NCBI GenBank assembly: GCA_018669975.1
Contig: JABHSK010000001.1
Span: 88,394-152,393, forward strand
DNA length: 64,000 nt
Reading direction: 5' to 3'
Source: Candidatus Parcubacteria bacterium
GTDB lineage: Bacteria; Patescibacteriota; Patescibacteriia; UBA1558; GWA2-36-10
The position numbers and the translations under genes are program-made. Position 1 is the first letter of the stretch, and each line of letters opens with the position of its first letter. Positions 16,967 to 38,516 of the stretch are shown here, in pieces. The notes under the pieces are model-generated. The model saw only the letters and a list, made by a program, of their open reading frames with translations, made no database searches and was not told where the DNA came from.

Positions 16967-17009
16967 TTCCAACCGCTACCTCCCCCCAGCGAGTGGAACT
17001 CAAGACAAG

Positions 17010-17063: not shown

Positions 17064-20000
17064 CTAGACACTTGGACTATCAAAACCTTTTAAACGTATC
17101 GCCACTTCTTTATCTATTATCTCCATACCCTCTCTTAAAGATATGGCTCTAGGATTAGTAGTATCCTTTCCTATAGCTGCTAACTGTGCTTCAGTAAATG
17201 CTTTTACTTTACTAAGATAATCAACATCATAATCATTAATTTTAGCTAGTTCAAAATTCAAACTCTCTTTTCCTGCATTAAGAGTGCCAATCGCATAATC
17301 AATCGGATCCATTGGTTTTTCAACACTAGTCTCTACTCCTGTTGATTGTGTTACTTTAGTATCACTACTAACTCCATCCTCATGTTTAACATCTATTATT
17401 TTATTATCTTTATCAAGCACTAAATTATCTACACCCCCATCTTTATCAGTAACTTCCACATCTAGAAGATCATTATGTGTTGTAATTTTAATTGTGTCTG
17501 TCACACCCTTATCTTCAGGTGATATACCTAGAGTATCAGCTGCTTCTTTGGAAAATACTATAGGACCTGTTCCTGGTACATCTAAACTACCTCCTTTGAA
17601 AGCAATACCCCGCTCTGCCATAACCTTAAAGGCATTATTATCAATATCCACTTTTATATTTGGTGGCAAGTCTGCGGACTTAGTTTCTAACACTGGTATT
17701 GCATCAGTAGTTAGTGGTGTTTCTACAACTTTTGGCATCTCCTTAGTAGATAAGTCTGGCTGAACAGTTTTTGGAACTACATCAGCTGATACTGCCTTCG
17801 GATCAGTAGTAACTGCCGCAACTTCAGGTGATACACCACTTGATTGACTATCAGGAGTAGCTGTGGAAGCCTCTGGTCTCTTCAAACTAAAAGTCTTATC
17901 ATTGTCTAATTCTATCCTTTCGGTTGCTAATGGCACCTTCCCATCAAATACCTCTTTCATAGCATCAGCATCCTTGATTGCATCTGGTACACCATCACCG
18001 TTTATATCTATATAAAATAAATCTTTGCGCATAAAACGGGCATCATGGCGAACTAAGGCATATTTTTCTCCAACTGCCACCGGCACCCATTCTTTATCAC
18101 CGCTAGCTTGATCAAAAGCAAATTCCATTTCTCGATAATTTCTAGTAACGTTAGATTCAAAAGCGCCCATTAGCCTTTTCATACTACCGTCATAATTTCT
18201 GAGCTCATCAGTGCCATACAATTTAGATATCTCATGCAAAAAGACGACTCTCTTATCATCGCCCATATTATTATCCTTAAAATAATCCCCAACGAACTGT
18301 TCTAATTGTTTAGTATTATTATCACTCAACATCTTATGTAAAACATCATCTAATTTTCCATCTGCTTTAGCTACGGCATACATGTCATTACTATACTCTG
18401 TATCACCTACTAGAAAACCATCGATTTGAGTCTTTACGCCCTCCACCCTAGTTAATTCTGCCACACGAGCATCTTCAGTAACCACCTCTTCAGCAGTCAT
18501 GGCAACATTACGCTCTTCCATAAATACCTTGAGCTGTTCAGTGCTCATTTCTTGATGAGAACCATCTGGCATCACTACATTTGGATTACCATCACGATCC
18601 CAATCATAAACTTTAACAACGCCATCTTCTGTTTGTAAACTAACAAACTGATCACCAGTTTGAGCGTCCATCTGCACCTCATGCTCTACACCTCCTTCAA
18701 ACTTGGTATCAGAGAAAAATTTCTCTACATTTGTATCAGATAGATGACTAGCGTTTATTCCTGATGCATCATCAAAACTTAAGACAGGTTTGCCATTAAC
18801 TATGTCTATTTTTACTACATCATTATCATGAACCAAATCAGCTAAATTACCTCCCTGTTCGGCATTTAATCCATTAACTGCGCTAGCTGTTTGTGCTTCA
18901 GCCCACCTTGATAGTTCTGCGGCATCATTAAGGTCACCTTTATAGCCTAGAGCTTCGGCATTGCCCGTAAATATAGCTTTGGCTGATCTCCAAATAGAAT
19001 CTGAACCACTGCTCATCTCTGATGAATCTATAGTGTCCTCGAAATGAGTTGGTTGTTCTTGAGCTACAGTTGTACCTGACTGCATAGATTCGTCTACACC
19101 TTCTGTTGAAACACCTGTTTCACTTGAATCCATAGATGGTGCAACGTCAGATTTCCAAGGATCAGGATCACTCTGACCAGATTTCCAAGGATCAGGCTCA
19201 TTTTTCCAATCTGATGTGCCTTTATATACCTCTGGTGCACCCCCTTCATTACTAGAACTAGAATCTACTTCTGGCTCTCCCACCACCACTTTACCTAAAG
19301 CTTTATCAAGTAATCCTGGACCAAAAAAGGAAGCCGCGCCACCTAATATAGCACCACCTGCCATAAATAATAATTTACGACGTTTAGTATGTTTTTCTAT
19401 ACGAGATACATCTACCTCAACTTGTTCTCCCAATTTTTTAGTATTACTACCGACCTGTTCTAGGAGACCAGTCAAGGTATCCTGATTTTTCATCTCTATT
19501 TTATTTACATTATGTACAAAATTTTCTGCCCTACTCTTGAGCAGTGGATTTGAATCTAAAATACCTAACTCTAATTTACTCTTGACAAAGATACTACCTT
19601 CTCTCAAAAAATCTAAATTTTCAACTGGAAAATTAATATCCTCAATTTTTGCCTCAGCCTCCTTCAGCATCTCACCAATTTCACCAAAAACTTTTTGCTC
19701 TTGCCTTAAATTCCTGTCCTCTGCTAGCATATAACCCATACCTGCACCACCCACAGCGCCTAATGCAACTCTAGTGGTACCCTCTAATCTAATAGCAGCA
19801 GAAACAGCAGCGCCAGTTAAGAAACTATAAGCATCATATTTATGTTTATCCCAGAAACTTTTTTCAGCTTCAGTTGCATCTGCTGGCAAGTCATCTATCT
19901 TGCCAGTGGCACTAAAGAGATTATATTTTTTTATATATCCATAAACAGCCGGATTATGATTCTTGAGTTCATCTAGCCTGGTCTTAGCCTCTGAGTTACC

Positions 20001-23000
20001 TCTTCTATGCTGACCAAGAGTCAATGCTAACTGCACAGCCATATTATGTTTTTCCAGGGCTGTAATATCGCTACGCTCTCCACTTGGATACATAGCTTCT
20101 ATTTGCACTAAAGCTGACTTATAAAGACCTTGTTCAATTTTATCTAAAGTGGAAGCCTCTACCTCTACATGGCCAGTCGCTCTAGCTTCTTCAAAAGCAA
20201 CATCTAATTCCTCCAAGGCTACGCCGCTAGTTTGCTCACGTACAGTATTGCTTATGTGTCCACTTAATTTACGTTTAAATTCTTCCGTGTTCTTAAATAA
20301 TTCTACCAAAAGAGCATCTTTCTTCTTTTCAACCTCTTCTTGTTCTTTAGCTTTGGTCTTTTCAAGATTACCCGTTTCTCTTTTGCCTCTTAATTTTCTA
20401 ACTAGTAAACGAACCCCTGAAACTGCTGAAGATGAAATACCAACTGAGGCAAGTCCTCCAATGCCACCTGTAAAAGCAGTGATAGCAAATGAACCAGCTA
20501 TAACCAGTGCTGCATCTACTGCTGCCCTAGCAGCTAGGCGTTTTACTTTTTTTGCACTTAGCAAAGCCATTTCCTGCTGAGCAGCCATATCTATAGTCTG
20601 CTGAATGACTTCATTGATTCTCTCTGCTACCTTACTTAAATCATCATCTGACAACAATTCTTGATCTCCCTGTTGTTCTAGGATATCCTTTATCTTTGTC
20701 TTATAAAAATTAACAATCTTTTCTTTAGTATTTTGTAATACTCTTTCAGCTGCATATAATTTTTGGCTGGCTTTTTCTGCCTCTTCACTAACCTTCTCTA
20801 TAGCAGCTGTTATTTTTTTAGCATTTTCCTCTCTAATTTTTACTAGACTTTCTTCAGCGCTTTTAGCTTTTACCCTGACTTCTGCTAATTCTTTTCCTAA
20901 CTCTGCAACCTCTTTATCATCACTAGGCACTAACTCTGCGGCAGCTAAATCACTCTCAAGCTCAACAACCTCCTTGGATAAAGATGTCACCACAGCTTCT
21001 GCAGCTCTAATTGGTTCTTCTGCCTCTCGGATAGGCTTGTTGGCTATATCTAATTCTGCTTGAGCAGCAGTCACTGCCTTACCAGCCTGCCTATACTCAT
21101 CCATAAAACCTTTAAGCTCTCCTATCTCTGATTCTTCTAAACTCTCAAAAATCATCCTCGGATGAATATCTAAATAACCAAGTTGTTTTTCCAGTTCTTC
21201 TTGAGAAAAAACAGTTGGTACTTCTGGAACAGCCTCTGCAGTTGTTGTAGCCTCTTCAGATTCCGCATCTGCTGCTTTTTCTTCACCTGACTCCACCTCA
21301 GTAGTCGCTGGTTCTTCAGCAACTGGCTCAACATAATTTTCTACAATTTCTGAATCTGTAATTTTCTCACCATCAGCTTCTCCTTTATGCTCAAATTTAC
21401 CACCTGTCTCTATTTTAATAACGCTACCTGAGACTTCACCATAAACTCTCAAGGTGGCACCATCTCTAACTGTAATATCACAACCAATAAGATCTCCGAC
21501 AGATAAAATTATGTATCGCTTCAAATCTTCCGTTTCACCATTAAGCATTTCATACTCTTTATCCTCTTCGGCAGTCTCTGTAGTTGTAGTTTCTGTGACT
21601 GTCTCAACTAGAGCTTCTTCAGATGTACCTACACCTGCATCTCCCAAATCTATACTCCTTTCGTTTGCGATACGTAATATTGTATCTTGAGCCCGTTCAA
21701 CATCTTTTAACTTTTGTTCAAGAATAGCCTTTTTCCTCACATCTTTTTCTTTACTAGCCTGCCCCTTATATAATTCAAGATCTTTTAAATTCTTTGCAAA
21801 AAAACGTTGAATCATCTCTGGTGGCGTTTTCTCTAAAGCAGCTTCAAGATACTGCTGTGATCGTACACGGAGTGCGTCAATTTGCTTCAACGACTCTTCA
21901 CTTAAATCTTTTTTAAGTGAAATACCAAGTTTTTGAAATATCTTATCTTCAATTGAATTATAATCTCTTCTTAATTTGTCCCATTCTTTTGCATCTATAT
22001 CCCGTTGAAATAGTTTCTCTGCTTTTGCGCGTAAGCCACCCTCCTCTGATATACCTTCACTTGTACCAGTTCCCTGCATATAGTCAGACAAAACATAAAA
22101 AGCATCTTCATTAGGGCCATCACCTACCTTAGTTACTAATTCTTCTAATGATTCTGCATCATATTGTTGTTCAGCGGTGGTTTCTGTAGCTGTATCAGCT
22201 ACACCCGCCTCTTTAATAACTTCTGATTCATGCCCTGCTGGTACTTCAGGTATAATTCCACTACCTTCACTTGTAGCTGGTGTTGGTGACTCTACTGACT
22301 CTGCACTATCTTCATCAGACACTTCAGAACCGTAAGGTTTTAAAATAACACCTGCTTCAACACTTAATTCTAGAATTCCTTGTGTCGTATCATCATATGC
22401 TGCTTGAATTTCTACTTTTATAGCCTCTACGTCATCGCCTGAACTGTCTTCAATAATTATCAAACTTCCTTCTTCGAAGGCTGCTACGAACTCATCCATC
22501 TTAAGATGAATTTTTCTAAGTTTCTCTATGTCCTCAGGTTTAAAACCCTCATGCTCCAAAACTAATCTTGCAAGCTCCACTTGACTCTTCAAGTCTTCGG
22601 TTTTATTAATCAAAAATTCTCTAGCTTCTTCTAATATCTCAGATTTTTTTTCTATATCATGTTCAGCATCACCCACAGGCACTTCATCAGCTGGCGTAGA
22701 CTCTCTATCAAAAGATCTACTATGTTGCTTGATATCAGACATAGTCTCTGCGCGCTTCTCTGCTACCTGTCTTTTGACTTCACCCTCATCTATAGACTCG
22801 ACTGATTTAGATTCAGTCAATTTAGCCAGGGCAAATTCTTTGTATTCATCAAAAAGTTTAGCGATTTTACTAGTTACCGAAACAATTTCTACATGAGCAA
22901 CGGGAGACTCACCTTCTGCCTTAGCTTCACACTGAGCAATAATCTCATCTGCAGCAACTTGAACTTCACTAATTTCAGCAGTAATAAATTCTGAAAAACT

Positions 23001-23063
23001 TAATTGTTCTGGTGATTTTTCACCAGTATCTAATGTGTCTTCTTTGGAATGTTTTCTTGCCAT
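17064..23063 (-). CDS. Giant (1999 aa) acidic coiled-coil membrane protein with C-terminal Ca-binding DxDxDG motifs
   Basis: One uninterrupted ORF. The N-terminal 900 aa are E/K/D-rich coiled coil. Three Gly/Ala-rich TM helices lie mid-protein. The region includes a tandem EPDPWKSGQSDPDPWKS duplication. The C-terminal part contains DINGDGVPD and DWDRDGNPN calcium-binding-like motifs. Confidence 0.85.
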   Translation of the reverse strand: MARKHSKEDTLDTGEKSPEQLSFSEFITAEISEVQVAADEIIAQCEAKAEGESPVAHVEIVSVTSKIAKLFDEYKEFALAKLTESKSVESIDEGEVKRQVAEKRAETMSDIKQHSRSFDRESTPADEVPVGDAEHDIEKKSEILEEAREFLINKTEDLKSQVELARLVLEHEGFKPEDIEKLRKIHLKMDEFVAAFEEGSLIIIEDSSGDDVEAIKVEIQAAYDDTTQGILELSVEAGVILKPYGSEVSDEDSAESVESPTPATSEGSGIIPEVPAGHESEVIKEAGVADTATETTAEQQYDAESLEELVTKVGDGPNEDAFYVLSDYMQGTGTSEGISEEGGLRAKAEKLFQRDIDAKEWDKLRRDYNSIEDKIFQKLGISLKKDLSEESLKQIDALRVRSQQYLEAALEKTPPEMIQRFFAKNLKDLELYKGQASKEKDVRKKAILEQKLKDVERAQDTILRIANERSIDLGDAGVGTSEEALVETVTETTTTETAEEDKEYEMLNGETEDLKRYIILSVGDLIGCDITVRDGATLRVYGEVSGSVIKIETGGKFEHKGEADGEKITDSEIVENYVEPVAEEPATTEVESGEEKAADAESEEATTTAEAVPEVPTVFSQEELEKQLGYLDIHPRMIFESLEESEIGELKGFMDEYRQAGKAVTAAQAELDIANKPIREAEEPIRAAEAVVTSLSKEVVELESDLAAAELVPSDDKEVAELGKELAEVRVKAKSAEESLVKIREENAKKITAAIEKVSEEAEKASQKLYAAERVLQNTKEKIVNFYKTKIKDILEQQGDQELLSDDDLSKVAERINEVIQQTIDMAAQQEMALLSAKKVKRLAARAAVDAALVIAGSFAITAFTGGIGGLASVGISSSAVSGVRLLVRKLRGKRETGNLEKTKAKEQEEVEKKKDALLVELFKNTEEFKRKLSGHISNTVREQTSGVALEELDVAFEEARATGHVEVEASTLDKIEQGLYKSALVQIEAMYPSGERSDITALEKHNMAVQLALTLGQHRRGNSEAKTRLDELKNHNPAVYGYIKKYNLFSATGKIDDLPADATEAEKSFWDKHKYDAYSFLTGAAVSAAIRLEGTTRVALGAVGGAGMGYMLAEDRNLRQEQKVFGEIGEMLKEAEAKIEDINFPVENLDFLREGSIFVKSKLELGILDSNPLLKSRAENFVHNVNKIEMKNQDTLTGLLEQVGSNTKKLGEQVEVDVSRIEKHTKRRKLLFMAGGAILGGAASFFGPGLLDKALGKVVVGEPEVDSSSSNEGGAPEVYKGTSDWKNEPDPWKSGQSDPDPWKSDVAPSMDSSETGVSTEGVDESMQSGTTVAQEQPTHFEDTIDSSEMSSGSDSIWRSAKAIFTGNAEALGYKGDLNDAAELSRWAEAQTASAVNGLNAEQGGNLADLVHDNDVVKIDIVNGKPVLSFDDASGINASHLSDTNVEKFFSDTKFEGGVEHEVQMDAQTGDQFVSLQTEDGVVKVYDWDRDGNPNVVMPDGSHQEMSTEQLKVFMEERNVAMTAEEVVTEDARVAELTRVEGVKTQIDGFLVGDTEYSNDMYAVAKADGKLDDVLHKMLSDNNTKQLEQFVGDYFKDNNMGDDKRVVFLHEISKLYGTDELRNYDGSMKRLMGAFESNVTRNYREMEFAFDQASGDKEWVPVAVGEKYALVRHDARFMRKDLFYIDINGDGVPDAIKDADAMKEVFDGKVPLATERIELDNDKTFSLKRPEASTATPDSQSSGVSPEVAAVTTDPKAVSADVVPKTVQPDLSTKEMPKVVETPLTTDAIPVLETKSADLPPNIKVDIDNNAFKVMAERGIAFKGGSLDVPGTGPIVFSKEAADTLGISPEDKGVTDTIKITTHNDLLDVEVTDKDGGVDNLVLDKDNKIIDVKHEDGVSSDTKVTQSTGVETSVEKPMDPIDYAIGTLNAGKESLNFELAKINDYDVDYLSKVKAFTEAQLAAIGKDTTNPRAISLREGMEIIDKEVAIRLKGFDSPSV

Positions 23064-23719: not shown

Positions 23720-25264
23720 CTACTTCTTAGGGATCAACTTAGACAACAATCCACCAAGCTTGGCACCGCCAAGATAATGGCTAGCAGCCCGACGAGAACG
23801 CTGGTCCTCAATGATCTGATCCCAGACTTCGCCCTCTGTAACCAAAGGCTTATTCATGGCTGCCAGAGACACGTTAAGCACTTCAGTTATGGATGTCAAA
23901 CGAGCCACAAAGGCTTGACCCTTGGCAGTTTGGACATTAATGTCACGCAGAGCGGTCTTTTCTTCAGCCCGCTTGCTGGCATATTCATCCAGCTGTGCCT
24001 TATAAATCTCATCAGGCACACGACGCAACATACCAATTTCCAACAACTCATGGCCAGTTGACTCAAGTACATAGCCCCTGAGATCATTCAGATCCCTCTG
24101 AATATCCCTCAGTTTAACCTGACGTTCTTCATGTGCCAATCTCAGCACAGTATCCTTAGCGGCATCTGTCCTATTTCTGAGACGACGCAAGTTATCGATC
24201 TTGGTTGACGTCATTTCCTTGAGGAAATCTGCGTCCAAGATCATGTCAGGAGTCTGCGTATGCATGTAGTCAGCCAACCAATCATTGATCACACCGATGA
24301 TATACTCATCAATCCTGTTACGCTCATCATCAGCTAGACCCCAGAAAATATCCACGTGGTCCAAGCTAAGCCGATGAGCTTCACGAAAGTTGAGCTTGAA
24401 AGAAGGGCCAGCGGCCACAGCTTCCTCATCACCATTGTCATCCGTTTCCGGAATGGCCATACATTCTAGCCAATCGGTCTCCGTCTTATTTTCCGGCTTT
24501 GCCCAAGCCAAAGGGACAAAATCCAACGGACCGAGCCAATTAGGTATCCAGCGAAGGCGTTTTAAACCAACCGCCAAAACCTTATTGTGATCATCACTAT
24601 TGGCTTCAGGCTTAGGAATCCACCCTGAACCTTTGGTGTCACGACGCTGAAGGTTACTAGCACCTTTAGCAAACACCGGGTAAAGAGGTTTTCCAAACCA
24701 GGTCAACATGAAAACTTGACGAACAGGAATGTTGATGTGAAGACTCAGCCAATATCCAGCAGCTATCAATACGACAGCCGTTAGATATGTCCACCAGAAG
24801 TGGAGCAGTGCTGCAGTCAAGATACCCAACGCAATCATCGAGAAGGATACCCAGCTCGGCCAATATACCTTGGGAGTTATCGCAGGCACACTCTGAGTGA
24901 ACGTAGCAAACCACTTCCGAGGACGAAAGGCCTTGTAACCGATTACCGACAAGGCTACCAGCAATACCAAGCCAATAATGGCCGGGATAAGCTGAAGCTT
25001 CATGTCAGGCGTACCGATATCAGGTGCATTAATGTTCAAGGAAGCTTTGTTCAGAACAAAGATAACCCATCCCAACGCAATCACACCGCTGGCGATCCAC
25101 TTGAACTTTTTGTTCTCATGGTTAGGACTAGTTAGGCCCCTAATCGCAAAACAAGAGAGAATGAACAACAGGATAACAATCCCGTGATCAATCACCACAT
25201 TTTCCCAGAACTTAGTCCAGGCTTCTGAGAGACCCTGATTGTCTGTGTACTTTTCGCTTGGCAT
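23720..25264 (-). CDS. Polytopic membrane protein with C-terminal coiled-coil domain, about 50% GC
   Basis: 514 aa. About 5 N-terminal TM helices, then a 300-aa helical cytoplasmic region. GC clearly above that of its neighbours. Confidence 0.65.
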   Translation of the reverse strand: MPSEKYTDNQGLSEAWTKFWENVVIDHGIVILLFILSCFAIRGLTSPNHENKKFKWIASGVIALGWVIFVLNKASLNINAPDIGTPDMKLQLIPAIIGLVLLVALSVIGYKAFRPRKWFATFTQSVPAITPKVYWPSWVSFSMIALGILTAALLHFWWTYLTAVVLIAAGYWLSLHINIPVRQVFMLTWFGKPLYPVFAKGASNLQRRDTKGSGWIPKPEANSDDHNKVLAVGLKRLRWIPNWLGPLDFVPLAWAKPENKTETDWLECMAIPETDDNGDEEAVAAGPSFKLNFREAHRLSLDHVDIFWGLADDERNRIDEYIIGVINDWLADYMHTQTPDMILDADFLKEMTSTKIDNLRRLRNRTDAAKDTVLRLAHEERQVKLRDIQRDLNDLRGYVLESTGHELLEIGMLRRVPDEIYKAQLDEYASKRAEEKTALRDINVQTAKGQAFVARLTSITEVLNVSLAAMNKPLVTEGEVWDQIIEDQRSRRAASHYLGGAKLGGLLSKLIPKK

Positions 25265-28033: not shown

Positions 28034-29842
28034 CTAGAATATTGTCAAGAATACTAAGAGCACTATAACTCCAATAGTAGAAGCAATAGTATGTGGGTGT
28101 TGTTTGCGAACCTCTATAAAGATACTTAACAGTAAAGCAATGATAGCCAAAGTAAGTATCACTTGATAATAAATAGAACTTAAGTCAAATAAAGGCTTTA
28201 TAAATTCTGATTGATTATTCTTTAAAAATACATACTGATTGACAGTTGAATTCTTTACTGGTGTAATATTATCCCAATTTACATCTTTTATAGTAGTATT
28301 TCCAGCCACATCTACAGCTGTTAAACTAGCTAAAACAAGTGGATTAAATAACTTCTCATAATCTATATCCGAAACTATCTTATTTCCGGTCCATTTTCCT
28401 TCTTCACTAAAATCTCTAGTTAAAGCAAGGGTGTAATCATCAAACTTAATATGGGCTGATTCTGTATCATCACTTAAATAGGCAGTGGCTTTAAAAACAA
28501 TATCTTCTTGACCCAGAGGTCTGTTTACTAATACTTTAGTTGCATTTTCATCAACTTCTGGGGCAGTATTATCAATATTTAAAGTATAATTACCAGATAA
28601 CATCACTTCTATACCACGATAGGATTTCAAGCTAATTATATGCTCACCTTCTTCAAGATTTAACTCGGTTATAACTGAATCATTTAGTACATCAAAAGCA
28701 GCTATTTCTTGACCATGATCTAAAATAGCTAAACTCTCAGCGTTTGGTGCTGATATTTCTAAATTAATATTATTACCTGAATTTATAGAATTTGTACTTG
28801 GATTAAGTAATTTTGGTATTACCAACGGTATTACAATTTCTTGAATATTTTCCTCTTTTTCAGCTAAAACATCTTCTTCGGGTTCAGTAATAACTACTAT
28901 TTCTTCTTCATTAGTTCTAGAGTTATCTAGAACTTCTTTTTCTTTTTCTACGATTTCTATGTTATCCACAAGCTCCCCTACTGTTTCTAATACAGCCACT
29001 TCTTCGGGCTCGATCTCCACTACAGGGACTACTTTTGGATCACCAAAGTACTGTGCAGCCAATGAGGTATCGTAACCTTGATAATTACCACTAACCATAG
29101 CTACACCAATCTCTGTAAAATCAGTATCAACCATATTAGCGTAATGAGTTGGACTCTTAACCCAGGCATTCACCACATCCTCGGGATTACTAAAACCTAA
29201 GGCTAAATTTTCACCAGCTACCCTAAAGGAATAATCAGCATCAAATAGCCAGTTCTTTAAGCTTCTGTTGTCAGGACTAGTATGAGCAAAATATTCATTA
29301 ATCATCATATCTTGAGCCTTGGCTAGAGCAGCCGTCTGTAAAACAGGACTTTCTTGTAAGGTATGAATATTTAAATTAGTTCTAATATTATTGGTTAATG
29401 CTACAATCTTTTTACTTTGAGTGTATAAAACATCTGGGGAAAGCCAAGCATGTACAGGAAAAGACATCAAAAAACCAACCATAATGACTTTTATGGCTAC
29501 AGCTGAAATAGCATGAAATGCTAATCTTTTTGGATGTAGAGCTTTTGGTCGATAATTATTATGACGAGTTGGAATAAACAAGTCAGATAATTTACCAGCA
29601 CCTTTAGGATTTCTTCCCAACATAACCTCAACACCATCTTCTACTCCGTCACGATCAGTGTCCGGATCCAATGGGTCTGTTTCATAAACATTTACTTCTT
29701 GGTAGTCACCTAAAGCATCATGATCACTATCTGGATCACGTGGATCAGTGCCTATTTTTTGCTCTTCCTTATCTAGCAAACCATCAGCATCTGAGTCTAT
29801 AGAGTCTTTACCAAGATTTTTATTGTTTTTTTTATTGGGCAT
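28034..29842 (-). CDS. CAP/SCP/PR1-domain membrane protein with N-terminal thrombospondin-type-3 (DxDxDG) repeats
   Basis: Repeated DSDADGLLD / DPDSDHD / DPDTDRDGVEDG motifs, a TM helix, the CAP-domain motifs (HYANMVD, GENLA) and a C-terminal TM anchor. Confidence 0.7.
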   Translation of the reverse strand: MPNKKNNKNLGKDSIDSDADGLLDKEEQKIGTDPRDPDSDHDALGDYQEVNVYETDPLDPDTDRDGVEDGVEVMLGRNPKGAGKLSDLFIPTRHNNYRPKALHPKRLAFHAISAVAIKVIMVGFLMSFPVHAWLSPDVLYTQSKKIVALTNNIRTNLNIHTLQESPVLQTAALAKAQDMMINEYFAHTSPDNRSLKNWLFDADYSFRVAGENLALGFSNPEDVVNAWVKSPTHYANMVDTDFTEIGVAMVSGNYQGYDTSLAAQYFGDPKVVPVVEIEPEEVAVLETVGELVDNIEIVEKEKEVLDNSRTNEEEIVVITEPEEDVLAEKEENIQEIVIPLVIPKLLNPSTNSINSGNNINLEISAPNAESLAILDHGQEIAAFDVLNDSVITELNLEEGEHIISLKSYRGIEVMLSGNYTLNIDNTAPEVDENATKVLVNRPLGQEDIVFKATAYLSDDTESAHIKFDDYTLALTRDFSEEGKWTGNKIVSDIDYEKLFNPLVLASLTAVDVAGNTTIKDVNWDNITPVKNSTVNQYVFLKNNQSEFIKPLFDLSSIYYQVILTLAIIALLLSIFIEVRKQHPHTIASTIGVIVLLVFLTIF

Positions 29843-29953: not shown

Positions 29954-30000
29954 TAAAAAAAGAGGAGGAAAACACCCAGCCGTTGCTGTTTGTTCTCCTC
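29954..30000 (-). terminator. Intrinsic terminator after the GC-rich gene pair
   Basis: Minus-strand hairpin GAGGAGAACAAACAGCAACGGCTGGGTGTTTTCCTCCTC followed by TTTTTTT. Confidence 0.5.
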
Positions 30001-30028
30001 CCCTGTGCTAGGGAAACAAGCTTAAATC

Positions 30029-31057
30029 TTAGGGGTTATTACCCACATTAAGATCCTGCATGAATCCTTCGCCACCGGCGGTCATATCGAGCTTTCCAGC
30101 CTCGATGATGGTTGTGGCGGTCTCCACATCACAATAGTTGATGTAGATAGTGCCTGCCGGCTTAGGTTGCCAGAAGGTCAATTCTTCCGAATCAGGATGG
30201 ATACGCTGGTTGACACGAGCTCCAGCAGCTACTTCGATTTGGGGTGCAGATTCAAGACTACGGGTCGAGGCTCCGATCAACGGACCTCTACTACTAAACC
30301 TCTTGACTCCGAGATTACCCCTACGATAGCGGCCACCGTAACTGTGTCCACCACCGGCAAAACCGACATCACCTAAGAGATCTCGGTAGACAGACGGCGG
30401 CGGAGCCGGTCGTTCTTCCCGACTGAGGTAGAAAGCAATGCCAATGGCAAAGACTCGCTCAGCTCCGATGACCTGAGCAGCCACACCACGCATCATTTCC
30501 TCAGTAAAGTAGAACTGACGGACTACACCGTCCTTAGCTCGGAAGCCATCCAACCAGAAACTCCCACGGGGAGTAACATTGCTGGCCAGATAATTCTGGG
30601 AATCCCACTTGAAGCCGCAGTCTGCGCAAAAACGCTCGTGACCGAGCTTGGTGCCGTGTACCGGACAATTGTCATGGTACTGCTCCAAGGAGTGGTCATC
30701 TACCTTGCGACCTGTAATGGCGTTGATACCCTGAACTGAAACCAGAGCTGCCACATGGTGAGTGTGTCCGGCATTGCCGTTGAAATCCAACCAGAGTCCG
30801 TGTTCCGACATAACCGGGACAAAGAAACTGGCAGCATCGGCATTGCCACGCATCCAGGAATCTGGACATGCCAGATACTCGTCAACTGCAAAGGCAGGAC
30901 GTCGGTTGTAGGGCGGTAGGCCTTGAGCTACCTCATTGCCTGAGCCATCATCCCGACGCTTGAGCGCCTTAGGCATGTTGAGAGTACAGGTAAGTCCGTT
31001 GATGGACATTTCGGTGCTACCACCACGTCCGCTGGCAAAAGGGTCGTTGGTACTCAT
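30029..31057 (-). CDS. Hypothetical protein, about 55% GC, with CxxH...CxxC zinc-ribbon-like motif
   Basis: 342 aa. RBS GAGGAG before MSTNDPF. Contains CPVHGTKLGHERFCADCGFKW and a Gly/Arg-rich segment GGGHSYGGRYRRGN. No family recognized. Confidence 0.6.
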   Translation of the reverse strand: MSTNDPFASGRGGSTEMSINGLTCTLNMPKALKRRDDGSGNEVAQGLPPYNRRPAFAVDEYLACPDSWMRGNADAASFFVPVMSEHGLWLDFNGNAGHTHHVAALVSVQGINAITGRKVDDHSLEQYHDNCPVHGTKLGHERFCADCGFKWDSQNYLASNVTPRGSFWLDGFRAKDGVVRQFYFTEEMMRGVAAQVIGAERVFAIGIAFYLSREERPAPPPSVYRDLLGDVGFAGGGHSYGGRYRRGNLGVKRFSSRGPLIGASTRSLESAPQIEVAAGARVNQRIHPDSEELTFWQPKPAGTIYINYCDVETATTIIEAGKLDMTAGGEGFMQDLNVGNNP

Positions 31058-31152
31058 TATCGATCTCCTCGTTTAGTAAACCAAAGATTGGTGCGGCGGG
31101 ACGGTCAGACCGTCCCGCCGCGAAATCACCCGATATTTACTAGACACTAGGT

Positions 31153-32031
31153 CTAGAACCTACGGTGTTTACCTCCAAAGGGATTATTGAGACCATTACC
31201 ATTCTGTCCGGTCCGCATAAGCTTAAGCGAAGGCAAGCCTCCGCCCTGCTTAAGTGCATCGAACATGACAGAAGCCTGCGAATAACGCTGACGAATCTTG
31301 CTCTCGGCATCATCGCCGAAAACCATGTCCATCACCGTATGGGCATCGTTGAGCTGGTTGACGACCACCTCTCGGGTCTCCTTGACGGTCAAATGGACCA
31401 GAACACGTACATCGAAAGGCACTCCGGCCCAACTACGATTAGTCTGATCACAGGTACCGTCGGGACGAAGCATGCGTCCCGGATAGAGCGGATTTTCATC
31501 CGCCGTCATATCCGGCCGTTCACCGATGCGGAAGGTCTGACGGGGACGTTCGTCCACCACCATGGTCTCGCGCTCGGGGAACTTGTCCCTGAGCTCATCA
31601 ACCAAAGTCGTGGAAGGCTCCACGTTGACCGTACCGTTATCGTTGAAAACGATACAGCGACCACCATTTGACAGCGTACTGAGACGCTTGCCAACAGGAT
31701 TGTCCGGGTCACGCGGATCGTAGTGCTCGAGGAGCTCTGCGACTGCCATACCCTGGGCACGCCTTTCGGTAATCACTGTCGGACGCTTCTTGTCCTGCTC
31801 GCGCTCGCGAAAAATTTTGGCCACTCGCTTGGCCACAAACTTTGGCAGACCACACTCCTGCAAATCCTCCCAGGAACATTCCTGCAAGGCCTCCAGGGTG
31901 GTGCCGCCTGCCAGGCGGAGTTTTTGGAAGAAGTCCGAGGTGGAAATACCCGTTCCGCCACCGGAATGAGCACTTTCGTTGTTAGCTGCGATGGCCTCAC
32001 GGGCCTGTTCGATCTTCTGTTCGTAAGACAT
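31153..32031 (-). CDS. Hypothetical protein, about 57% GC
   Basis: 293 aa from an internal ATG preceded by SD AAAGGAGAGA (MSYEQKIEQ...). An opposite-strand ORF is also open, as expected for a GC-rich block. No family recognized. Confidence 0.55.
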   Translation of the reverse strand: MSYEQKIEQAREAIAANNESAHSGGGTGISTSDFFQKLRLAGGTTLEALQECSWEDLQECGLPKFVAKRVAKIFREREQDKKRPTVITERRAQGMAVAELLEHYDPRDPDNPVGKRLSTLSNGGRCIVFNDNGTVNVEPSTTLVDELRDKFPERETMVVDERPRQTFRIGERPDMTADENPLYPGRMLRPDGTCDQTNRSWAGVPFDVRVLVHLTVKETREVVVNQLNDAHTVMDMVFGDDAESKIRQRYSQASVMFDALKQGGGLPSLKLMRTGQNGNGLNNPFGGKHRRF

Positions 32032-32461
32032 GTGTCTCTCCTTTGCTCTCAAGCTCTCTCTCGCTCTTAGCAAATCTTTTTCACCTGATAAACCTCAGGT
32101 AAAGCCGACGAGATATCAATGTATCCTCCCTCCTTTCCTGTCGAAAATTGACCCCAAGGGTCAGAAAAAGACCCTCGGAATTTCCGGTAAAACTAGATTC
32201 TACCGGCCGAGGAGTTAAACCCCTATTTTAATACAAATAAGAAACTAACTCCTGACCAATAAAACCTATATTTATTAAGGTACAAACGTTAGACATTATA
32301 ATAAAATCAGTGCTTTGTCAATTCTTATTTATTATAATAAAAAATGTTTAAAGTGGCTATATTGACAAAAACATCAAATATTATTAAAGTACTCTATTGT
32401 TATATTCAGCAAAGAAAAATCCTGAAAAACTCGTACCTTTAAAAAGGAGAAAAAACTAGGC

Positions 32462-32995
32462 ATGAAAAACCTAAAAGAGCTTGGCTTAAAACTACTCGAG
32501 CCTTTTCGCATCTTTTTTGTCGACTTGGTCTGGAGAGAAATGACACACCCTTCATGGGGTAATCGCCTGACGGCCTATAGCGCACTTGCCATCTTTGGTT
32601 TTGTCTTTGGCTTTGTGCTTATTGTACTGTCTGAAGATCTACCGACCTACGACGAACTGGCAGCCAAAGACCCCAATGCGCCATTTACCGAGTGGCAAGC
32701 TGTGGTCGAGGGTGTCCGATATCCTTCGTGGGATGATCTTACTTTAGGATTAATCTTGGACCGACTCAAGCAAAAAGCTCGAAGATATGAAGAATGGATG
32801 GTGGTATACAACACCTCAGTGGGCCGAGGCGCTCACCGACGAGTAGAACGACTATCTCTAGAAAAACTTCTGGAAACTGCCCAAAGCTACGAGCAAGCTG
32901 AATTCGTCTATAAACACCACAACTACCATCGCCATCTCAAGGGTCAAGCCTTGGGTAAAATGGCCAACCTGACCCAAAATACAGGGAGAAAGTAA
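32462..32995 (+). CDS. Membrane-anchored protein of a novel 31-32 aa tandem helical-repeat family
   Basis: N-terminal TM helix, then repeats of type A-x-x-KMA-x-LA-x-x-x-x-W-x-x-VY (for example LEKLLETAQSYEQAEFVYKHHNY..GQALGKMANLT). GC about 50%. Confidence 0.6.
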   Translation: MKNLKELGLKLLEPFRIFFVDLVWREMTHPSWGNRLTAYSALAIFGFVFGFVLIVLSEDLPTYDELAAKDPNAPFTEWQAVVEGVRYPSWDDLTLGLILDRLKQKARRYEEWMVVYNTSVGRGAHRRVERLSLEKLLETAQSYEQAEFVYKHHNYHRHLKGQALGKMANLTQNTGRK

Positions 32996-33577
32996 TGCTC
33001 ACAATCAAACACCTTCTCGGATGGCCCCTACGATATCTCAATAGCGAATGGAAGAACGCCCCTTTCTCAGTCCGCCTGATGATGATCGTAGTAGGAATAT
33101 TCTTTTCGCTACTGATCTTCCTGAGTACTGCATCCTGGATCGAGCAAACGCCCTCATTTGAAACCTTGGCCGCCAAGGATGATGACACCTCGTTCCAAGA
33201 ATGGAGAGATATAGAGGCGCAGGCCAAATATTCAAAGTGGAATGAAGCCAGCTTCACGCTAATCATCACCAATATGCAGCAAAAGGCTGAAAGCTACGAT
33301 GACTGTCTTCAAAACCGTCAAGGGTAATAATCATTATAGACACATCGAAAGAGCTGCTCTGACTCAATCGCTAAACAAGGCTGAGGCCTATGAGCAAGCC
33401 AAGTGGCTCTACAAAAATGACGACTACAACAGCGATCTCAAAAGCGCGGCCTTAGAAAAAATGGCTGCTCTAGCCAGTACCTACGATGAGTGGGAATATG
33501 TCTTCGAGAAAACCTATCCAGCTCATCCACTGCATGCTCGTGCTTTACGTAAAATGCAAGAACTAACCTCATCCTAA
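32995..33577 (+). pseudogene. Frameshifted paralog of the 32462-32995 repeat protein (ORFs 32995-33327 and 33299-33577)
   Basis: The two overlapping frames together align colinearly with the upstream paralog. KQKARRYEE|WMVVYNTSVGRGAHRRVER aligns with QQKAESYDD in frame 1 and MTVFKTVKGNNHYRHIER in frame 2. The shift lies near 33295-33305. Confidence 0.45.
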
Positions 33578-33591
33578 CAAGGAGTCAGAAC

Positions 33592-34656
33592 ATGCCAAAA
33601 CGTTGGGTAGTACCTATTATATTAACTTCTGTATTGGCAAGCATAGTCATAACTATTCTTTTGAACAAATCACCCTCTTTTGAGGAGCTGGTTGCCCAGA
33701 ACCTAACTTTTGGCGAATGGGTCGAGGCCTATGACGATGCCAAGTATGGCTCTGACGAGCGCAAGCTGATCATCCAGAAGATGGCTGAAGGAGCCACGGA
33801 ATTTGCTCAATGGGATATTGTCCGAGAAAAAGCTGGCTATGACAGCGATTTTGATGATCTGGCCGTGCAAAACATGGCCCTCACAGCCCAGACCGCCAAA
33901 CAATGGCATCGACTAATGACTGTCACCTACGACCATGAGCTACGCCAAACTGCTGTGGCGAAAATCCAAGAGCTGTGCGCTAGCTTTGAAGATTGGCAAG
34001 CTGTCTACAAAATATCTTCTTGGTCCAGTGGCAGCAGCGAATATATGGCTGAGATGTCCATAACTAAGATGCTGGAAACTGCCCAGACCTTTGAGCAGGC
34101 CCAGTTTACTTTTAGTAGACTAAGCAACAGAAGCGAACAATACCAAGCTGCCGTAACAACTATGGCTAAGCTGGCTGGCAACTACCAGCAATGGAATATT
34201 GTCTACGAGGCTGCTCACTGGCAAGACAGAGACACCAGAAATCAAGCCTTGGCCGCTATGCGTAATCGTGCCGACAATTTTGAGCAGTGGAAGATTATTT
34301 ACCGCCACTCTGAGCGTGATAGCCCGAAACGGGTGGAAGCCGTAGAACGTATGGCTGATTATGCTGGCGTTTTTCTGGAGTGGGCTGATGTCTACACTGC
34401 CATACCCGATGAGCACGAGCTCAAGCAAATTGCCTTTGTACTCATGGATCAATCTCCACTACCGTTTGATATGTGGTATGATGTCTGGACTACTCACGGT
34501 TCCAAAAAGGTCAAATCACTAGCTTTTAGCAAGCTGAGCAAGCAAGCTCACACCTTTGACCAGTGGCACAAGATCTGGCAGAATTCACCCTCGGGTAGTG
34601 ATACCGAATCCATGGCCCTAGCCAAAATGCAAGAGTTTAGCACTGCTTCTCCTTAA
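33592..34656 (+). CDS. Membrane-anchored protein with about 10 tandem 31-32 aa helical repeats (same novel family)
   Basis: N-terminal TM helix, then KMAEGATEFAQWDIV..., TMAKLAGNYQQWNIVYEAA..., AMRNRADNFEQWKIIYRHS..., RMADYAGVFLEWADVYTAI..., KLSKQAHTFDQWHKIWQNS... Confidence 0.65.
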   Translation: MPKRWVVPIILTSVLASIVITILLNKSPSFEELVAQNLTFGEWVEAYDDAKYGSDERKLIIQKMAEGATEFAQWDIVREKAGYDSDFDDLAVQNMALTAQTAKQWHRLMTVTYDHELRQTAVAKIQELCASFEDWQAVYKISSWSSGSSEYMAEMSITKMLETAQTFEQAQFTFSRLSNRSEQYQAAVTTMAKLAGNYQQWNIVYEAAHWQDRDTRNQALAAMRNRADNFEQWKIIYRHSERDSPKRVEAVERMADYAGVFLEWADVYTAIPDEHELKQIAFVLMDQSPLPFDMWYDVWTTHGSKKVKSLAFSKLSKQAHTFDQWHKIWQNSPSGSDTESMALAKMQEFSTASP

Positions 34657-34666
34657 CAAAAATGTA

Positions 34667-34700
34667 CCCCGTACTTAAATGTGCGGGGTTTTTATTTTAT
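34667..34700 (+). terminator. Intrinsic terminator; a near-identical copy recurs at 35752
   Basis: Hairpin CCCCGTACTTAAATGTGCGGGG followed by a T-run. Confidence 0.6.
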
Positions 34701-34820
34701 CTCTTTACAAATAGACCAAATAATGGCAAGATACGGTCAGCGTTCATTGTCCTTTATAGCTCCGACAGAATCCTTAGAACGCGGGAATGGCTGTCTTTGC
34801 ACTTTCACCGATGGGATTTA

Positions 34821-35726
34821 ATGGCCCGTCGAGAAATGAGAGGTCCTCCAATGGCACGAGATGTAAAACCCCGAGATCTCCAAGAACCAATGTCTAGAAA
34901 GGCCATCGTCATAATGATTGGCTGGCTAGCACTATTCTGCCTGCTAGGTTTCCTAACCCTCAAGAGAATATCTAACCCTGAAATGATTTTCGTTTTTTTA
35001 CTGGAAATGTTTATTGTGTCTTACTGCTTCTACTATATTGGCTCGGAGTGGTTTCCTAGAAACTTCAAGACTCGATATCTCTGGTACTGGCTGGAAAGAC
35101 CACAAAATGAAGACAGAAGGCTTCGTTGCCAGACTGGTTTTAATCCATCACGAGCTCCTGTAGCTTTTCGACTCAAAATCTCCGGCTGGTCCGGTAATAA
35201 TCAGATCTTTGTTGATGGAAAGCCTAGTGATGACTGGCGAGTGGAAGTCTTTAAAGACTTGGACTTTTTTAGCTATCACGACTTGATTATCTATGACAAG
35301 GAAGGTAGACCACTATACATTGAAGGTCATGGTTTCCATAGTGTCGAATACCTACTCTGGGTCGTCGAGAGTGCACCTGATCTTTCCAAACATTGGAACT
35401 ATGAATATACCATCGCCAAAGAACACCGTGATATGATCAATGCGCTACTAGTCCTGGAGGAAGCCTCTGCTCCTGATGGAACCATGGGTAATAAATGGCA
35501 AGCCAAATTTATCCGAGATTTCGTCGGCGCAGAACTTGACCAAGTAATCGGTAGGTGGCTCAATGGTGAGTCCACGGATGATCTCCTTCCTGGAACTGAT
35601 CTGAAGCTGTCGTGCAAACGATATGATCTAGAAAATGTTCTTCGAAATTGCACTGGCAGAATGAGACTGCTACCGGCCGAACCTGTGTTCAGGTGTAGTG
35701 AGAAGAAAATGATAACTACATCCTGA
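34821..35726 (+). CDS. Hypothetical membrane protein (2 TM helices) with C-terminal soluble domain
   Basis: The ORF-track start at 34662 overlaps the upstream terminator. More plausible starts are MARREMRG (34821) or MSRKAIV (34890). No motif recognized. Confidence 0.45.
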   Translation: MARREMRGPPMARDVKPRDLQEPMSRKAIVIMIGWLALFCLLGFLTLKRISNPEMIFVFLLEMFIVSYCFYYIGSEWFPRNFKTRYLWYWLERPQNEDRRLRCQTGFNPSRAPVAFRLKISGWSGNNQIFVDGKPSDDWRVEVFKDLDFFSYHDLIIYDKEGRPLYIEGHGFHSVEYLLWVVESAPDLSKHWNYEYTIAKEHRDMINALLVLEEASAPDGTMGNKWQAKFIRDFVGAELDQVIGRWLNGESTDDLLPGTDLKLSCKRYDLENVLRNCTGRMRLLPAEPVFRCSEKKMITTS

Positions 35727-35751
35727 AACTAATCGGAGCAAAATAAAAACA

Positions 35752-35785
35752 CCCCGTACTCAAAGTGCGGGGTCTTCTTTTTATT
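35752..35785. terminator. Bidirectional intrinsic terminator (shared with rlmN on the minus strand)
   Basis: Hairpin CCCCGTACTCAAAGTGCGGGG with T-runs on both strands. Confidence 0.6.
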
Positions 35786-35797
35786 TAAATTTATTTT

Positions 35798-36796
35798 TTA
35801 CTTACAGTTTTTCTTGTTGGCCAATTGACCACAGGCAGCATCTATGTCCTGACCAAAACTATAACGCTGGGTAACACCTACGCCCTCTTGCTCTAATACT
35901 TTTCTAAAATCTTCAATAGCATTTTTATCTGAAGCCTTGTAAACATCCGTAGGATTATAAGCTATAAGGTTGACCATATATAATGGTTTCTTCATCAACT
36001 CCGCCAATTCTTTGGCCTGCTCTGGACTGTCATTGATACCCTTAATCATTAAATATTCAAACATTACCCTACGACCCGTTTTAATAATATATTTATCGAC
36101 AGCCTTAAATAAGTCCTTCATTGGAAAACGCTTATTGATAGGCATCAACTCGTTACGCAGTCTATCATTAGGGGCGTGTAAAGAAATCGCTAAATTAACT
36201 TGCATTTTTTCATTAGCTAGCTTATCTATACCATTTAGCACTCCACTGGTAGATATAGAAATATGACGAGCACCAATACCCAAATCCTCATTAAGATATT
36301 TAATAGCCTTGATAGTGTTATCATAATTTAAAAATGGCTCCCCCATTCCCATAACAACTACATTAGAAACTCGCTTGTCTTCTTCTTTGAGTATTCTAGA
36401 AAAAAATAACACCTGCTGCAACATTTCTTCTACTTCTAGGTTTCTTTTTAGACCCATCTTGCCAGTGGCACAAAATGTACAGGCTAAAGAACAACCTACT
36501 TGAGTAGATACACAAACAGTGTGCCGCCCGTCTTTGTGAGACAACATTACTGTTTCAATCTGCAAACCGTCAGCTAAAGTAATTAAAGCCTTGGTGGTTT
36601 TAGCATCTCGGGAAGCAAAAATCTGCCCATCTATTTCCAAAGGGCACTCTTTATTTAATTTTTCCTTGAAGTCCTTAGAAATATTTGAAGCTTCAGACCA
36701 ATTACTAGCTAATTTCTTGAAGATAGCATCTTTAGCCTGTTGGATACGATATTTAGGCTGACCTTCTAATACTTTGTATAGTTTATTTAAATTCAT
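35798..36796 (-). CDS. rlmN: 23S rRNA (adenine2503-C2)-methyltransferase, radical SAM
   Basis: CSLACTFC (CxxxCxxC), MGMGEP and the C-terminal ACGQL match the RlmN/Cfr family. Confidence 0.9.
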   Translation of the reverse strand: MNLNKLYKVLEGQPKYRIQQAKDAIFKKLASNWSEASNISKDFKEKLNKECPLEIDGQIFASRDAKTTKALITLADGLQIETVMLSHKDGRHTVCVSTQVGCSLACTFCATGKMGLKRNLEVEEMLQQVLFFSRILKEEDKRVSNVVVMGMGEPFLNYDNTIKAIKYLNEDLGIGARHISISTSGVLNGIDKLANEKMQVNLAISLHAPNDRLRNELMPINKRFPMKDLFKAVDKYIIKTGRRVMFEYLMIKGINDSPEQAKELAELMKKPLYMVNLIAYNPTDVYKASDKNAIEDFRKVLEQEGVGVTQRYSFGQDIDAACGQLANKKNCK

Positions 36797-37385: not shown

Positions 37386-37428
37386 GGAGCCGTCACGCAG
37401 ACTTGAACTGCGGACCCCTTCCTTACCA
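37386..37428 (-). tRNA. tRNA 3' fragment (T-arm, acceptor 3' strand and encoded CCA). No matching 5' half, so likely an att-site remnant
   Basis: Minus strand reads ...GGTCCGCAGTTCAAGTCTGCGTGACGGCTCCA. T-stem CGCAG/CTGCG with loop TTCAAGT, acceptor 3' strand TGACGGC, discriminator T, then CCA. The required 5' acceptor strand GCCGTCA is absent within 100 nt upstream. Confidence 0.5.
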
Positions 37429-37571
37429 TAAATACACCTGGGGTATATTTATGATATTTGGTCTAATGTTAGCGCTAAATAGTAAGTTTATCGTATTTAA
37501 TTTATACCAGCCGGTGGACCTGTTTACCAACCAGGAGCTCCGAAAAATACTGCTCTATTATTGTATCAAAT

Positions 37572-38516
37572 CTAGAGCATATCGTCCATGTTCAAATCCT
37601 CTATATCACCTCTCATAGCATTACTAGGAATACAGCGTAAATAAGCCGCCGTCATACGTATATCTTTGTGTCCTAGAAGTTGTTTTATCTTCATAATATC
37701 TGAACCATTGTTAATCAAATTTATAGCAAAAGAATGCCTAAATCTATGAACATGAAATTTAACACCTGATTCCTCTACTATTTTAGTCACAGTATTTTTT
37801 AACCCATGCTCAGTAAACTTATTATCACTATTGTTTGATACAAAAAAATATTCTGTTTTATACCCTAGACTTTTACGCTCCTTTAAATAATCTTTTAAAA
37901 TGCTAATAAGCCTTCTGTTTAGAGGTATTACTCTGTTTATTTTTGATTTTGAAATCTCAGCCCTAACTGTCAATTCTTCTATATCAAAGTTAAAATCTAT
38001 TAACTTTAAGCCTAATAACTCACTTTTCCTTATTCCTGTGTATAAAAATAGATTAAAAATAGCCGTATTTCTCTTTCTTACCAAATTATTAATCCAATCT
38101 ATATTTATAACAATTGCTGAAAATATTTTATCCAGATCTTTTTTTTGGATAAATTTTTTGTCAGCATACTCTACATTTGGACACTTGATTTCTTTAAAAG
38201 GATTTTCCTTTATTTTCTTGTGTTTTTCCAGCCATACCATAAAAACATTTAACTTTGACCAATACGTAGCTGTTGTACTTCTTTTTATTCCAGTTTTAAT
38301 CTCTCCTCTACCAACTTCTCTTTCTCTTTGTTCTAGTCTTTTAAAAAATTTAACCATGGTTTCAGCTGATAAATCAGCCACTGTTACGCCAGGATTTAGT
38401 TTTAGAAATAAATTAAATGCGCCAACATAGCCTCTGATAGTAGTATCAGATAATTTACCGACATATTTACATTCTTCAATAAAATCTTGGTGTAAAAGTT
38501 TTAAATTTTTCTTCAT
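37572..38516 (-). CDS. int: Tyrosine recombinase / phage integrase
   Basis: C-terminal catalytic motifs HVHRFRHSFA and LLGHKDIRMTAAYL (R..HxxR..Y) with an N-terminal SAM-like domain. Confidence 0.9.
   Translation of the reverse strand: MKKNLKLLHQDFIEECKYVGKLSDTTIRGYVGAFNLFLKLNPGVTVADLSAETMVKFFKRLEQREREVGRGEIKTGIKRSTTATYWSKLNVFMVWLEKHKKIKENPFKEIKCPNVEYADKKFIQKKDLDKIFSAIVINIDWINNLVRKRNTAIFNLFLYTGIRKSELLGLKLIDFNFDIEELTVRAEISKSKINRVIPLNRRLISILKDYLKERKSLGYKTEYFFVSNNSDNKFTEHGLKNTVTKIVEESGVKFHVHRFRHSFAINLINNGSDIMKIKQLLGHKDIRMTAAYLRCIPSNAMRGDIEDLNMDDML

Follow-up and report, generated by a model that had tools for sequence, protein, structure and literature searches.

We describe a locus in a 64,000-nt stretch of DNA (hereafter the window) from Candidatus Parcubacteria bacterium (contig JABHSK010000001.1, positions 88,394 to 152,393), in which three adjacent genes, g1, g2 and g3, encode proteins that combine a transmembrane (TM) helix with tandem copies of a 31-residue helical repeat. 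These genes are probably a horizontally acquired operon of membrane-tethered solenoid scaffolds in which g2 has been inactivated, and the gene behind them, g4, is an unrelated neighbour. Our confidence in the anatomy of the locus is high, whereas that in the scaffold function of g1–g3 is moderate to low. The original prediction, made from the window sequence, had seen a four-gene cluster of membrane-anchored repeat proteins here; g1–g3 are indeed membrane-anchored paralogues, but g4 contains no repeat unit and has its own leader and terminator. The locus lies between a CAP-domain gene and rlmN, and the lineages L001, L217/L218 and L009 were compared with the window at this CAP-rlmN site, with rlmN as synteny anchor.

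All three genes are on the plus strand. g1 (32462..32995) encodes 177 amino acids (aa), with a conserved N-terminal tail of 37 aa, a TM helix at residues 38–56 and three repeats, and its stop codon overlaps the start codon of g2 in the sequence TAATG. g2 is split into two open reading frames (ORFs). The N-terminal fragment g2a (32995..33327, 110 aa) has a TM helix at residues 28–46 and the first repeat, and then runs into out-of-frame codons behind a deletion; the C-terminal fragment g2b (33299..33577, 92 aa) holds the tail of the cut unit and two full repeats, has no TM helix, and shows no convincing ribosome-binding site (RBS) ahead of its ATG as judged from sequence. Following a gap of 14 nt and provided with an AGGAG RBS, g3 (33592..34656, 354 aa) encodes an N-terminal signal-anchor at residues 6–24 and ten repeats. 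The predicted sigma-70-like promoter TTGACA-17-TAAAGT (32362..32390, plus strand) is embedded in AT-rich DNA and is kept in L001 and L217, and RBSs are likewise conserved. Downstream, the hairpin T1 (34666..34689, plus strand; ACCCCGTACTTAAATGTGCGGGGT followed by a T-run), which has nine pairs, six of them GC, and then TTTTTATTTT, closes the operon. A shared promoter and a single terminator, with genes between them that overlap or lie close together, make it most likely that g1-g2-g3 form a single operon. The proteins are paralogous, g1 and g2 being 43% identical over 116 aa and g3 and g1 32% identical over 74 aa, and g3 is 60% identical to its orthologue P0001.

The period of the repeat was clear from g3, whose self-comparison peaked at lag 31 (z = 6.5 against shuffles). 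We seeded a hidden Markov model (HMM) with the ten g3 units and iterated it on homologues, and it converged on TFEEWLEVYNKAPSDSELKKLALEKMAELA, which is the previously proposed consensus in another register. With this model, 10 units were found in g3, 2 in g1 (both strong) and 2 in g2b, and the rest of the window gave none. By eye, an extra degenerate unit can be recognised right behind the TM helix (PFTEWQAVV... in g1 and SFQEWRDIE... in g2), and a g2 unit beginning SYDD is cut by the deletion, so that the totals including degenerate first units are 3 for g1, 4 for g2 and 10 for g3. The features described earlier are all present in the sequence, and their interpretation was right in part. Across the family the modal spacing of units was 31 (108 of ∼205 adjacent pairs at spacings of 26–40), and a spacing of 34 occurred only 7 times. 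Conserved positions are F2, W5, V/I8, Y9, L18, A22, L23, M26, L29 and A30, which are mostly hydrophobic and lie in predicted helices; a Ser close to where the second helix begins is conserved as well.

An exhaustive HMMER search of metagenomes recovered this family in 181 clusters (50% identity; E ≤ 1e-3), of which 36 reached E ≤ 1e-10; almost every cluster is a metagenomic singleton. Hence the repeat is not lineage-specific as had been supposed; it is the TM-anchored g1–g3 operon alone that is limited to one small clade. The 31-residue repeat defines a family that carries no annotation and is thinly scattered. Outside the g1–g3 clade most members are soluble, but eleven have N-terminal TM, signal-peptide or lipobox sequences. 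Homologues of g3 were found neither in phage and plasmid collections nor in IMG/VR, and literature searches did not find a description of the repeat. A TM-anchored member of 940 aa was seen on contig L230 (JGI 3300033143, 45 kb), where the genes of the 17-kb stretch examined are all on one strand and nearly all without Pfam match; L230 may be a phage-like or otherwise mobile element, and the family may travel on such elements too.

Structure prediction, which had been suggested as a check on the repeat, gave a regular fold. The AlphaFold2 model of g3, built with 60 homologues, is a continuous alpha-solenoid of 22 helices, paired over the 10 units (predicted local distance difference test, pLDDT, 88.4; predicted template modelling score, pTM, 0.79), preceded by a low-confidence N-terminal hydrophobic helix. 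The predicted antiparallel helix pairs in a continuous superhelix place it in the TPR-like alpha-solenoid structural class. Foldseek searches of the PDB and of viral models with the g3 model gave matches to helical-repeat proteins of a generic kind and to no others (designed repeats, 14-3-3, HAT, TPR and Sel1), all with template modelling (TM-) scores below ∼0.4. In sequence, Pfam gave no TPR, Sel1, HEAT, ARM or PPR match for the window proteins and 60 family members, the HEAT and ARM models also failing on the consensus and PF08238 matching 0 of the 60 members. No matches to the repeat proteins were found in NCBIfam, PHROGs or PADLOC, and none among PDB sequences with either a protein query or the repeat profile. 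Alignment with hhalign gave a probability of 0.1% against a fourfold consensus CTPR3 repeat and of 0.02% against a Sel1 consensus, both consensus sequences having been entered by hand. The pentapeptide class, with its 5-residue period and beta-helix, does not apply to a g3 period of 31 and an all-alpha model. This bears out the original prediction that the repeat falls outside the TPR, Sel1, HEAT/PBS and pentapeptide patterns. An artificial consensus of eight copies gave inflated Pfam scores for PI3K_P85_iSH2, LTD and Sigma70_ner, none of which is a repeat family; these scores are an artefact because eight identical copies add up weak local matches.

The same data bear on whether the repeat is a highly divergent branch of the TPR-like superfamily (TPR, Sel1 or HAT) that has been shortened to 31 residues. 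Its unit topology, an antiparallel helix pair, and its superhelical stacking are those of TPR-like proteins, and HAT, TPR and Sel1 proteins are among the low-scoring Foldseek matches. However, the period is 31 rather than the 34 residues of the TPR unit (CL0020; e.g. PF00515, PF07719, PF13181) or the 36-44 of Sel1, the sole TPR-clan match at E ≤ 0.01 in 60 members was one to TTC7_N at 0.0092, and the F-x-x-W...V-Y...A-L-x-K-M signature is unlike that of TPR, so we regard such a descent as improbable. A helical-hairpin solenoid fold together with the lack of any sequence match indicates a familiar structural kind that belongs to no named sequence family.

The break in g2 near position 33300, already noticed in the original prediction, is real. 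Relative to the L001 orthologue and to g1, 8 nt are deleted between 33303 and 33304 (plus strand) and a conserved Trp codon is lost with them; at this site the intact orthologue has a TGGATGGA-type sequence that includes the Trp codon. Because the g2a and g2b ORFs overlap by 29 nt and the repeat pattern carries on in the second frame, we considered a programmed +1 ribosomal frameshift and a sequencing or assembly error, alternatives to a pseudogene between which resequencing had been meant to decide. An exact look-up of the g1 protein retrieved 20 contigs, and in all eight places shown, which come from several studies, the same split into 110 and 92 aa was present; the eight assembly contigs that we fetched matched the window with at least 99.96% identity wherever they covered it. 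An identical split in at least eight independent assemblies from different samples excludes an error. Moreover, the g2 orthologues in L001 and L217 are single intact ORFs of 196 aa, which makes a programmed shift very unlikely, and neither an orthologue-conserved shift nor a slippery site was found at g2. We therefore give almost no credence to either of these explanations, and the split is, on this comparison of sequences, an inactivating mutation fixed in this population.

The operon had also been suggested to evolve rapidly, which the ratios of nonsynonymous to synonymous divergence (dN/dS) do not bear out. For g1 the ratio was 0.19 against L001 and 0.10 against L217, for g2a and for g2b it was 0.19 against each of the two, and for g3 it was 0.20 against L001, no g3 being present in L217. 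For comparison, the CAP-domain gene gave 0.14 against L001, and rlmN gave 0.02 against L217 and was not computable against L001, where synonymous divergence (dS) is saturated. Values of 0.10-0.20 in all parts of the operon thus indicate that g1–g3 are constrained, less tightly than housekeeping genes. Within g3, divergence is greatest in the middle units and least in the last three. These ratios also bear on the view that the cluster is acquired DNA without a function, which is decaying and will be lost. In support of decay, g2 is frameshifted in the window genome, L001 is without g4 and without the neighbouring genes p342 and p306 (see below), L217 is without g3 and g4, and L009 is without g1–g3. 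Against it, every retained gene has kept its low dN/dS despite near-saturated synonymous sites between lineages (dS 0.3-1.7), and promoter and RBSs are conserved; we consider decay quite improbable. dS against L001 is uneven along the locus, with 0.30-0.47 for g1 and g2a (32462-33294) and 0.9-1.5 for the CAP gene (28034-29842), g2b and g3 (33299-34653), which suggests that the 5′ part of the operon has been exchanged between lineages by more recent recombination.

Horizontal acquisition is indicated by base composition and by distribution. The window genome has ∼31% GC and encodes MurA, FtsE/X, LexA, Fpg and RlmN among others; by RlmN, the nearest public genomes are Patescibacteria metagenome-assembled genomes (MAGs) labelled Komeilibacteria or Parcubacteria, with 78-85% identity. 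Between the CAP-domain gene (28034-29842, minus strand) on the left and rlmN (35798-36796, minus strand) on the right lies a GC-rich island (29960..35790, no strand) of 44-57% GC, in which the GC content of third codon positions (GC3) is 0.42-0.61, compared with 0.18-0.33 in the flanking core genes. The earlier figure of ∼50% GC was correct for the genes themselves (44-50%) but overlooked that they form a compositional island. For g1–g3, GC3 is 0.47-0.57, and their composition is foreign in all three operon-carrying lineages; repeat-family members in three other genomes have the GC content of their own genome. No two of the four genomes compared have the same genes at the CAP-rlmN site. These genes are p342, p306, g1, the broken g2, g3 and g4 in the window, g1, g2 and g3 in L001 (rlmN 96% identical over the last 107 residues), p343, p292, g1 and g2 in L217/L218 (rlmN 95%), and g4 and two unrelated genes in L009 (rlmN 84%). 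Moreover, none of 80 related GTDB loci, including loci with rlmN 78-85% identical, has a repeat-family gene beside rlmN. Composition unlike the host combined with patchy presence among relatives is what defines a horizontal island. No integrase or transposase is present within 29960-35790, and short direct repeats alone were found at the module borders.

The product of g4 (34851..35726, plus strand, ∼291 aa) has two TM helices at its N-terminus and a C-terminal domain of the alpha/beta type, and the gene is a transcription unit of its own. The gene most likely starts at ATG 34851, which has GAGAGG ahead of it and coincides with the L009 start in the alignment; a start at 34662 was rejected, as that ORF would run through T1 and the conserved non-coding leader. 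Only two clusters of g4 proteins exist in 5.8 billion sequences, g4 itself and the L009 protein, and the AlphaFold model from these two sequences was unusable (pLDDT 39.7). In the outgroup L009, g4 adjoins rlmN without g1–g3, and it is missing from both operon-carrying sister lineages. By its content and its distribution, then, g4 is an independent neighbour gene, unrelated to g1–g3.

As had been noted, two near-identical hairpins bracket g4. T2 (35751..35773; ten pairs, six of them GC; T-runs on both strands) lies between the convergent g4 and rlmN and differs from T1 by a T/C change and a 1-nt loop indel, with similarity extending over ∼45 nt. The motif has only these two copies in the window and 0 in shuffles, and they flank exactly g4. 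Both are GC-rich hairpins followed by a T-run and located downstream of a stop codon, and are predicted to be intrinsic terminators. A hairpin followed by a T-run also stands at the T2 position in L001 and in L009, with stems whose sequence differs from genome to genome. Ahead of g4 a weak promoter-like sequence, TTTACA-17-CAAGAT (34704-34732), precedes a non-coding leader (34737..34840, plus strand) with ∼87% nucleotide identity to its L009 copy (11921-12018, minus strand); the g4 proteins are 43% identical. RNAalifold found stems with four compensatory pairs in these two sequences. The leader had no Rfam match, its covariance model, run on 1.5 Mb of Patescibacteria DNA, recovered the two sequences that it had been trained on and no others, and its 15-nt core gave only chance matches in metagenomes among the matches listed. 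It is a candidate cis-regulatory leader RNA.

Because g4 stands beside rlmN in L009, we rejected an insertion of g4 into the window; we take the gene to be ancestral at this place and its absence from the sister lineages to be a loss. In the simplest history, g4 would already have stood next to rlmN when the GC-rich genes came into the ancestor of the window, L001 and L217 lineages, and different pieces would subsequently have been lost in each lineage. In L001, g3 leads directly into a T2-like hairpin, which is what a collapse of T1-g4-T2 through recombination of the two direct repeats would leave behind. A small Komeilibacteria-like clade of Patescibacteria would have received the operon by horizontal transfer.

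For the proteins themselves, we counted charges on both sides of the TM helix. In all eight g1, g2 and g3 sequences the N-terminal side carries 2-3 Lys and Arg, and the C-terminal side carries one Lys or Arg together with 2-5 Asp and Glu. According to the positive-inside rule, the larger number of Lys and Arg N-terminal of the helix predicts that the N-terminus is inside and the C-terminus outside, and the existence of relatives with lipoboxes or signal peptides fits this topology. Since the conserved positions are almost all hydrophobic and nothing resembling a catalytic motif was found in the repeat, the variable surface is plausibly the functional part. The operon would then encode three paralogous single-pass proteins. 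In each of them a short N-terminal tail, which is predicted to lie in the cytoplasm, is followed by one TM helix and then by a solenoid predicted to face outward, in which the conserved positions would make the structural core and the variable surface would do the binding. Such proteins would most likely act as protein-binding scaffolds or adaptors tethered to the membrane of the cell envelope. We regard as shown the anatomy, the paralogy, the fold class, the absence from databases, the frameshift, the purifying selection, the composition of the island and the distribution of the genes over the lineages; we infer the outward topology and the binding function, as well as the direction in which the operon moved and the recombination between T1 and T2.

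Several observations weigh against this account. The outward topology is predicted from charge counts alone, and the ∼90% of family members without an export signal suggest that the domain may normally work in the cytoplasm. Functional clues are also missing elsewhere in the family, as the longest members have no recognisable extra domains or fusions, five other genomic contexts share no neighbour gene, and no experimentally studied homologue was found. The operon may be dispensable, as g2 is broken in the window and each lineage has lost one gene or another from the locus. No donor lineage was found, the best non-orthologous match being 29% identical. GC3 has stayed at ∼0.5 in all three lineages despite near-saturated dS, which a simple account of recent transfer followed by amelioration does not explain. 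Finally, recombination between T1 and T2 is read from one presence/absence pattern, and the terminator in L001 has diverged in sequence.

The lack of export signals leads to the main alternative, in which the repeat domains would face the cytoplasm or be intracellular and the proteins would be tethered adaptors, regulators or toxin-neutralising proteins of the immunity type. In addition, 40 of 156 family members have a soluble N-terminal cap motif, tandem arrays of paralogues are typical of immunity genes, and weak Pfam matches to Imm27 recur below threshold in P0007, P0014 and the consensus. However, the Imm27 (PF15590) scores of 19-19.5 bits stay under the cut-off of 27.3 bits, and no toxin gene is adjacent to the operon or present in the five other family contexts. 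The charge distribution and the exported relatives also run counter to a cytoplasmic location, and we judge this alternative unlikely. The outward-facing scaffold remains our preferred explanation.

The island also contains a second module, which is not part of the repeat operon. p342 (30029..31057, minus strand) belongs to a large conserved Patescibacteria family with 308 homologues that are 45-61% identical, and has no Pfam domain. Its upstream partner is p306 (31153..32031, minus strand), whose true start is probably at MSYEQK, giving 292 aa. In two other genomes that were checked, L219 and L220, a p306-like gene precedes p342. The p306-p342 pair is a conserved two-gene Patescibacteria module, with one further match in Omnitrophota and one on a 461-kb IMG/VR contig. 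In the window, as in a Buchananbacteria MAG (GC3 0.62-0.67 compared with ∼0.45-0.52), the GC content of the pair exceeds that of its genome. The leader of p306 (∼32032-32300, minus strand; L217 2594-2900, L219 4640-5006) is conserved as far as the Buchananbacteria genome; its hairpins, CCGGTA...TACCGG in one form and CCGGTG...CATCGG in another, show apparent compensatory changes, and it has no Rfam match. More than 300 homologous p306-p342 operons are available for comparison. In the window, the p342-p306 module has a direct repeat of 13-14 nt, AAAAATGT[A/T]TAAA, on either side, of which L001 has one copy.

Other parts of the window also drew our attention. Beyond rlmN and a Nudix gene, a tyrosine integrase gene (37572-38516, minus strand) adjoins a sequence resembling a tRNA 3′ half (∼37390-37433, minus strand; GGTCCGCAGTTCAAGTCTGCG...GGCTCC), which neither ARAGORN nor Rfam called, and is followed by a run of small genes without Pfam matches. 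This looks like an integrated element, separate from the island, with a tRNA-derived attachment (att) site. Further genes of foreign composition are the radical-SAM, 344-aa, 353-aa and kinase genes at 4210-8151 (GC3 0.38-0.51), a 258-aa ORF (16190-16966, in the region 16033-16972) with a GC3 of 0.77 and long ORFs on both strands, and a 514-aa membrane protein in 23720-25264 (GC3 0.51). An acidic protein of 1999 aa with internal membrane helices is encoded at 17064-23063 (minus strand). On the L001-lineage contig a 1657-aa protein is encoded between Fpg and the CAP gene.

A large part of bacterial diversity is attributed to the Patescibacteria. To our knowledge every cultivated representative lives attached to other microbes, and we are aware of little work on their surface proteins. 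A confidently folded, predicted membrane-tethered scaffold of an unnamed repeat family is therefore a reasonable candidate for cell contacts. One could go further and see a new class of helical-repeat protein that episymbiotic Patescibacteria display on their membrane as receptor or adhesin for partner cells, encoded at a CAP-rlmN recombination hot spot where cassettes are swapped at terminator-like repeats, with g4 and p306-p342 under structured leader RNAs outside Rfam; we regard this whole picture as a long shot. Unnamed helical-repeat proteins are common in metagenomes, and the immediate value of the finding lies in annotation rather than mechanism: the repeat family, with at least 181 clusters, could enter the domain databases, and the locus points to two possible unannotated leader RNAs.

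Compared with known systems, the locus as a whole resembles gene gain and loss between direct repeats, a general mechanism, in that the ∼45-nt repeats T1 and T2 flank g4 and the 13-14-nt repeats flank p342-p306; it differs in that neither a recombinase nor an integron integrase nor an attC-type structure accompanies it, and the process is deduced from genome comparison. It is a clean natural example of such gain and loss in a streamlined genome. As to the repeat, TPR and HAT proteins share the stacked tandem antiparallel helix pairs, the right-handed alpha-solenoid and a conservation confined to core hydrophobic positions, and they typically serve as protein-binding scaffolds, as we propose for g1–g3, whereas their unit has 34 residues and the signature TFxxWxxVY ... 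S.L...ALxKM..LA is not that of TPR. Sel1-like repeat (SLR) proteins, which are common in symbionts, pathogens and giant viruses, also consist of helical hairpins and often have signal peptides or anchors, but their units are 36-44 residues long with a G/A-rich signature. HEAT, ARM and PBS repeats belong to the alpha-solenoid class too, and the PBS-type HEAT unit of ∼30 residues comes near to 31, although HEAT repeats are without the conserved Trp/Tyr pattern seen here. The best PDB E-values in Foldseek were those of designed helical repeats (6vfk_B and 5k7v_A), which have idealised two-helix units of similar length; as these proteins are artificial, the likeness shows only that the g3 model is a regular helical-hairpin solenoid. 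In sequence the repeat of g1–g3 is a new variant, while in structure it is of a well-known kind; the variable locus that encodes it is unusually well resolved.

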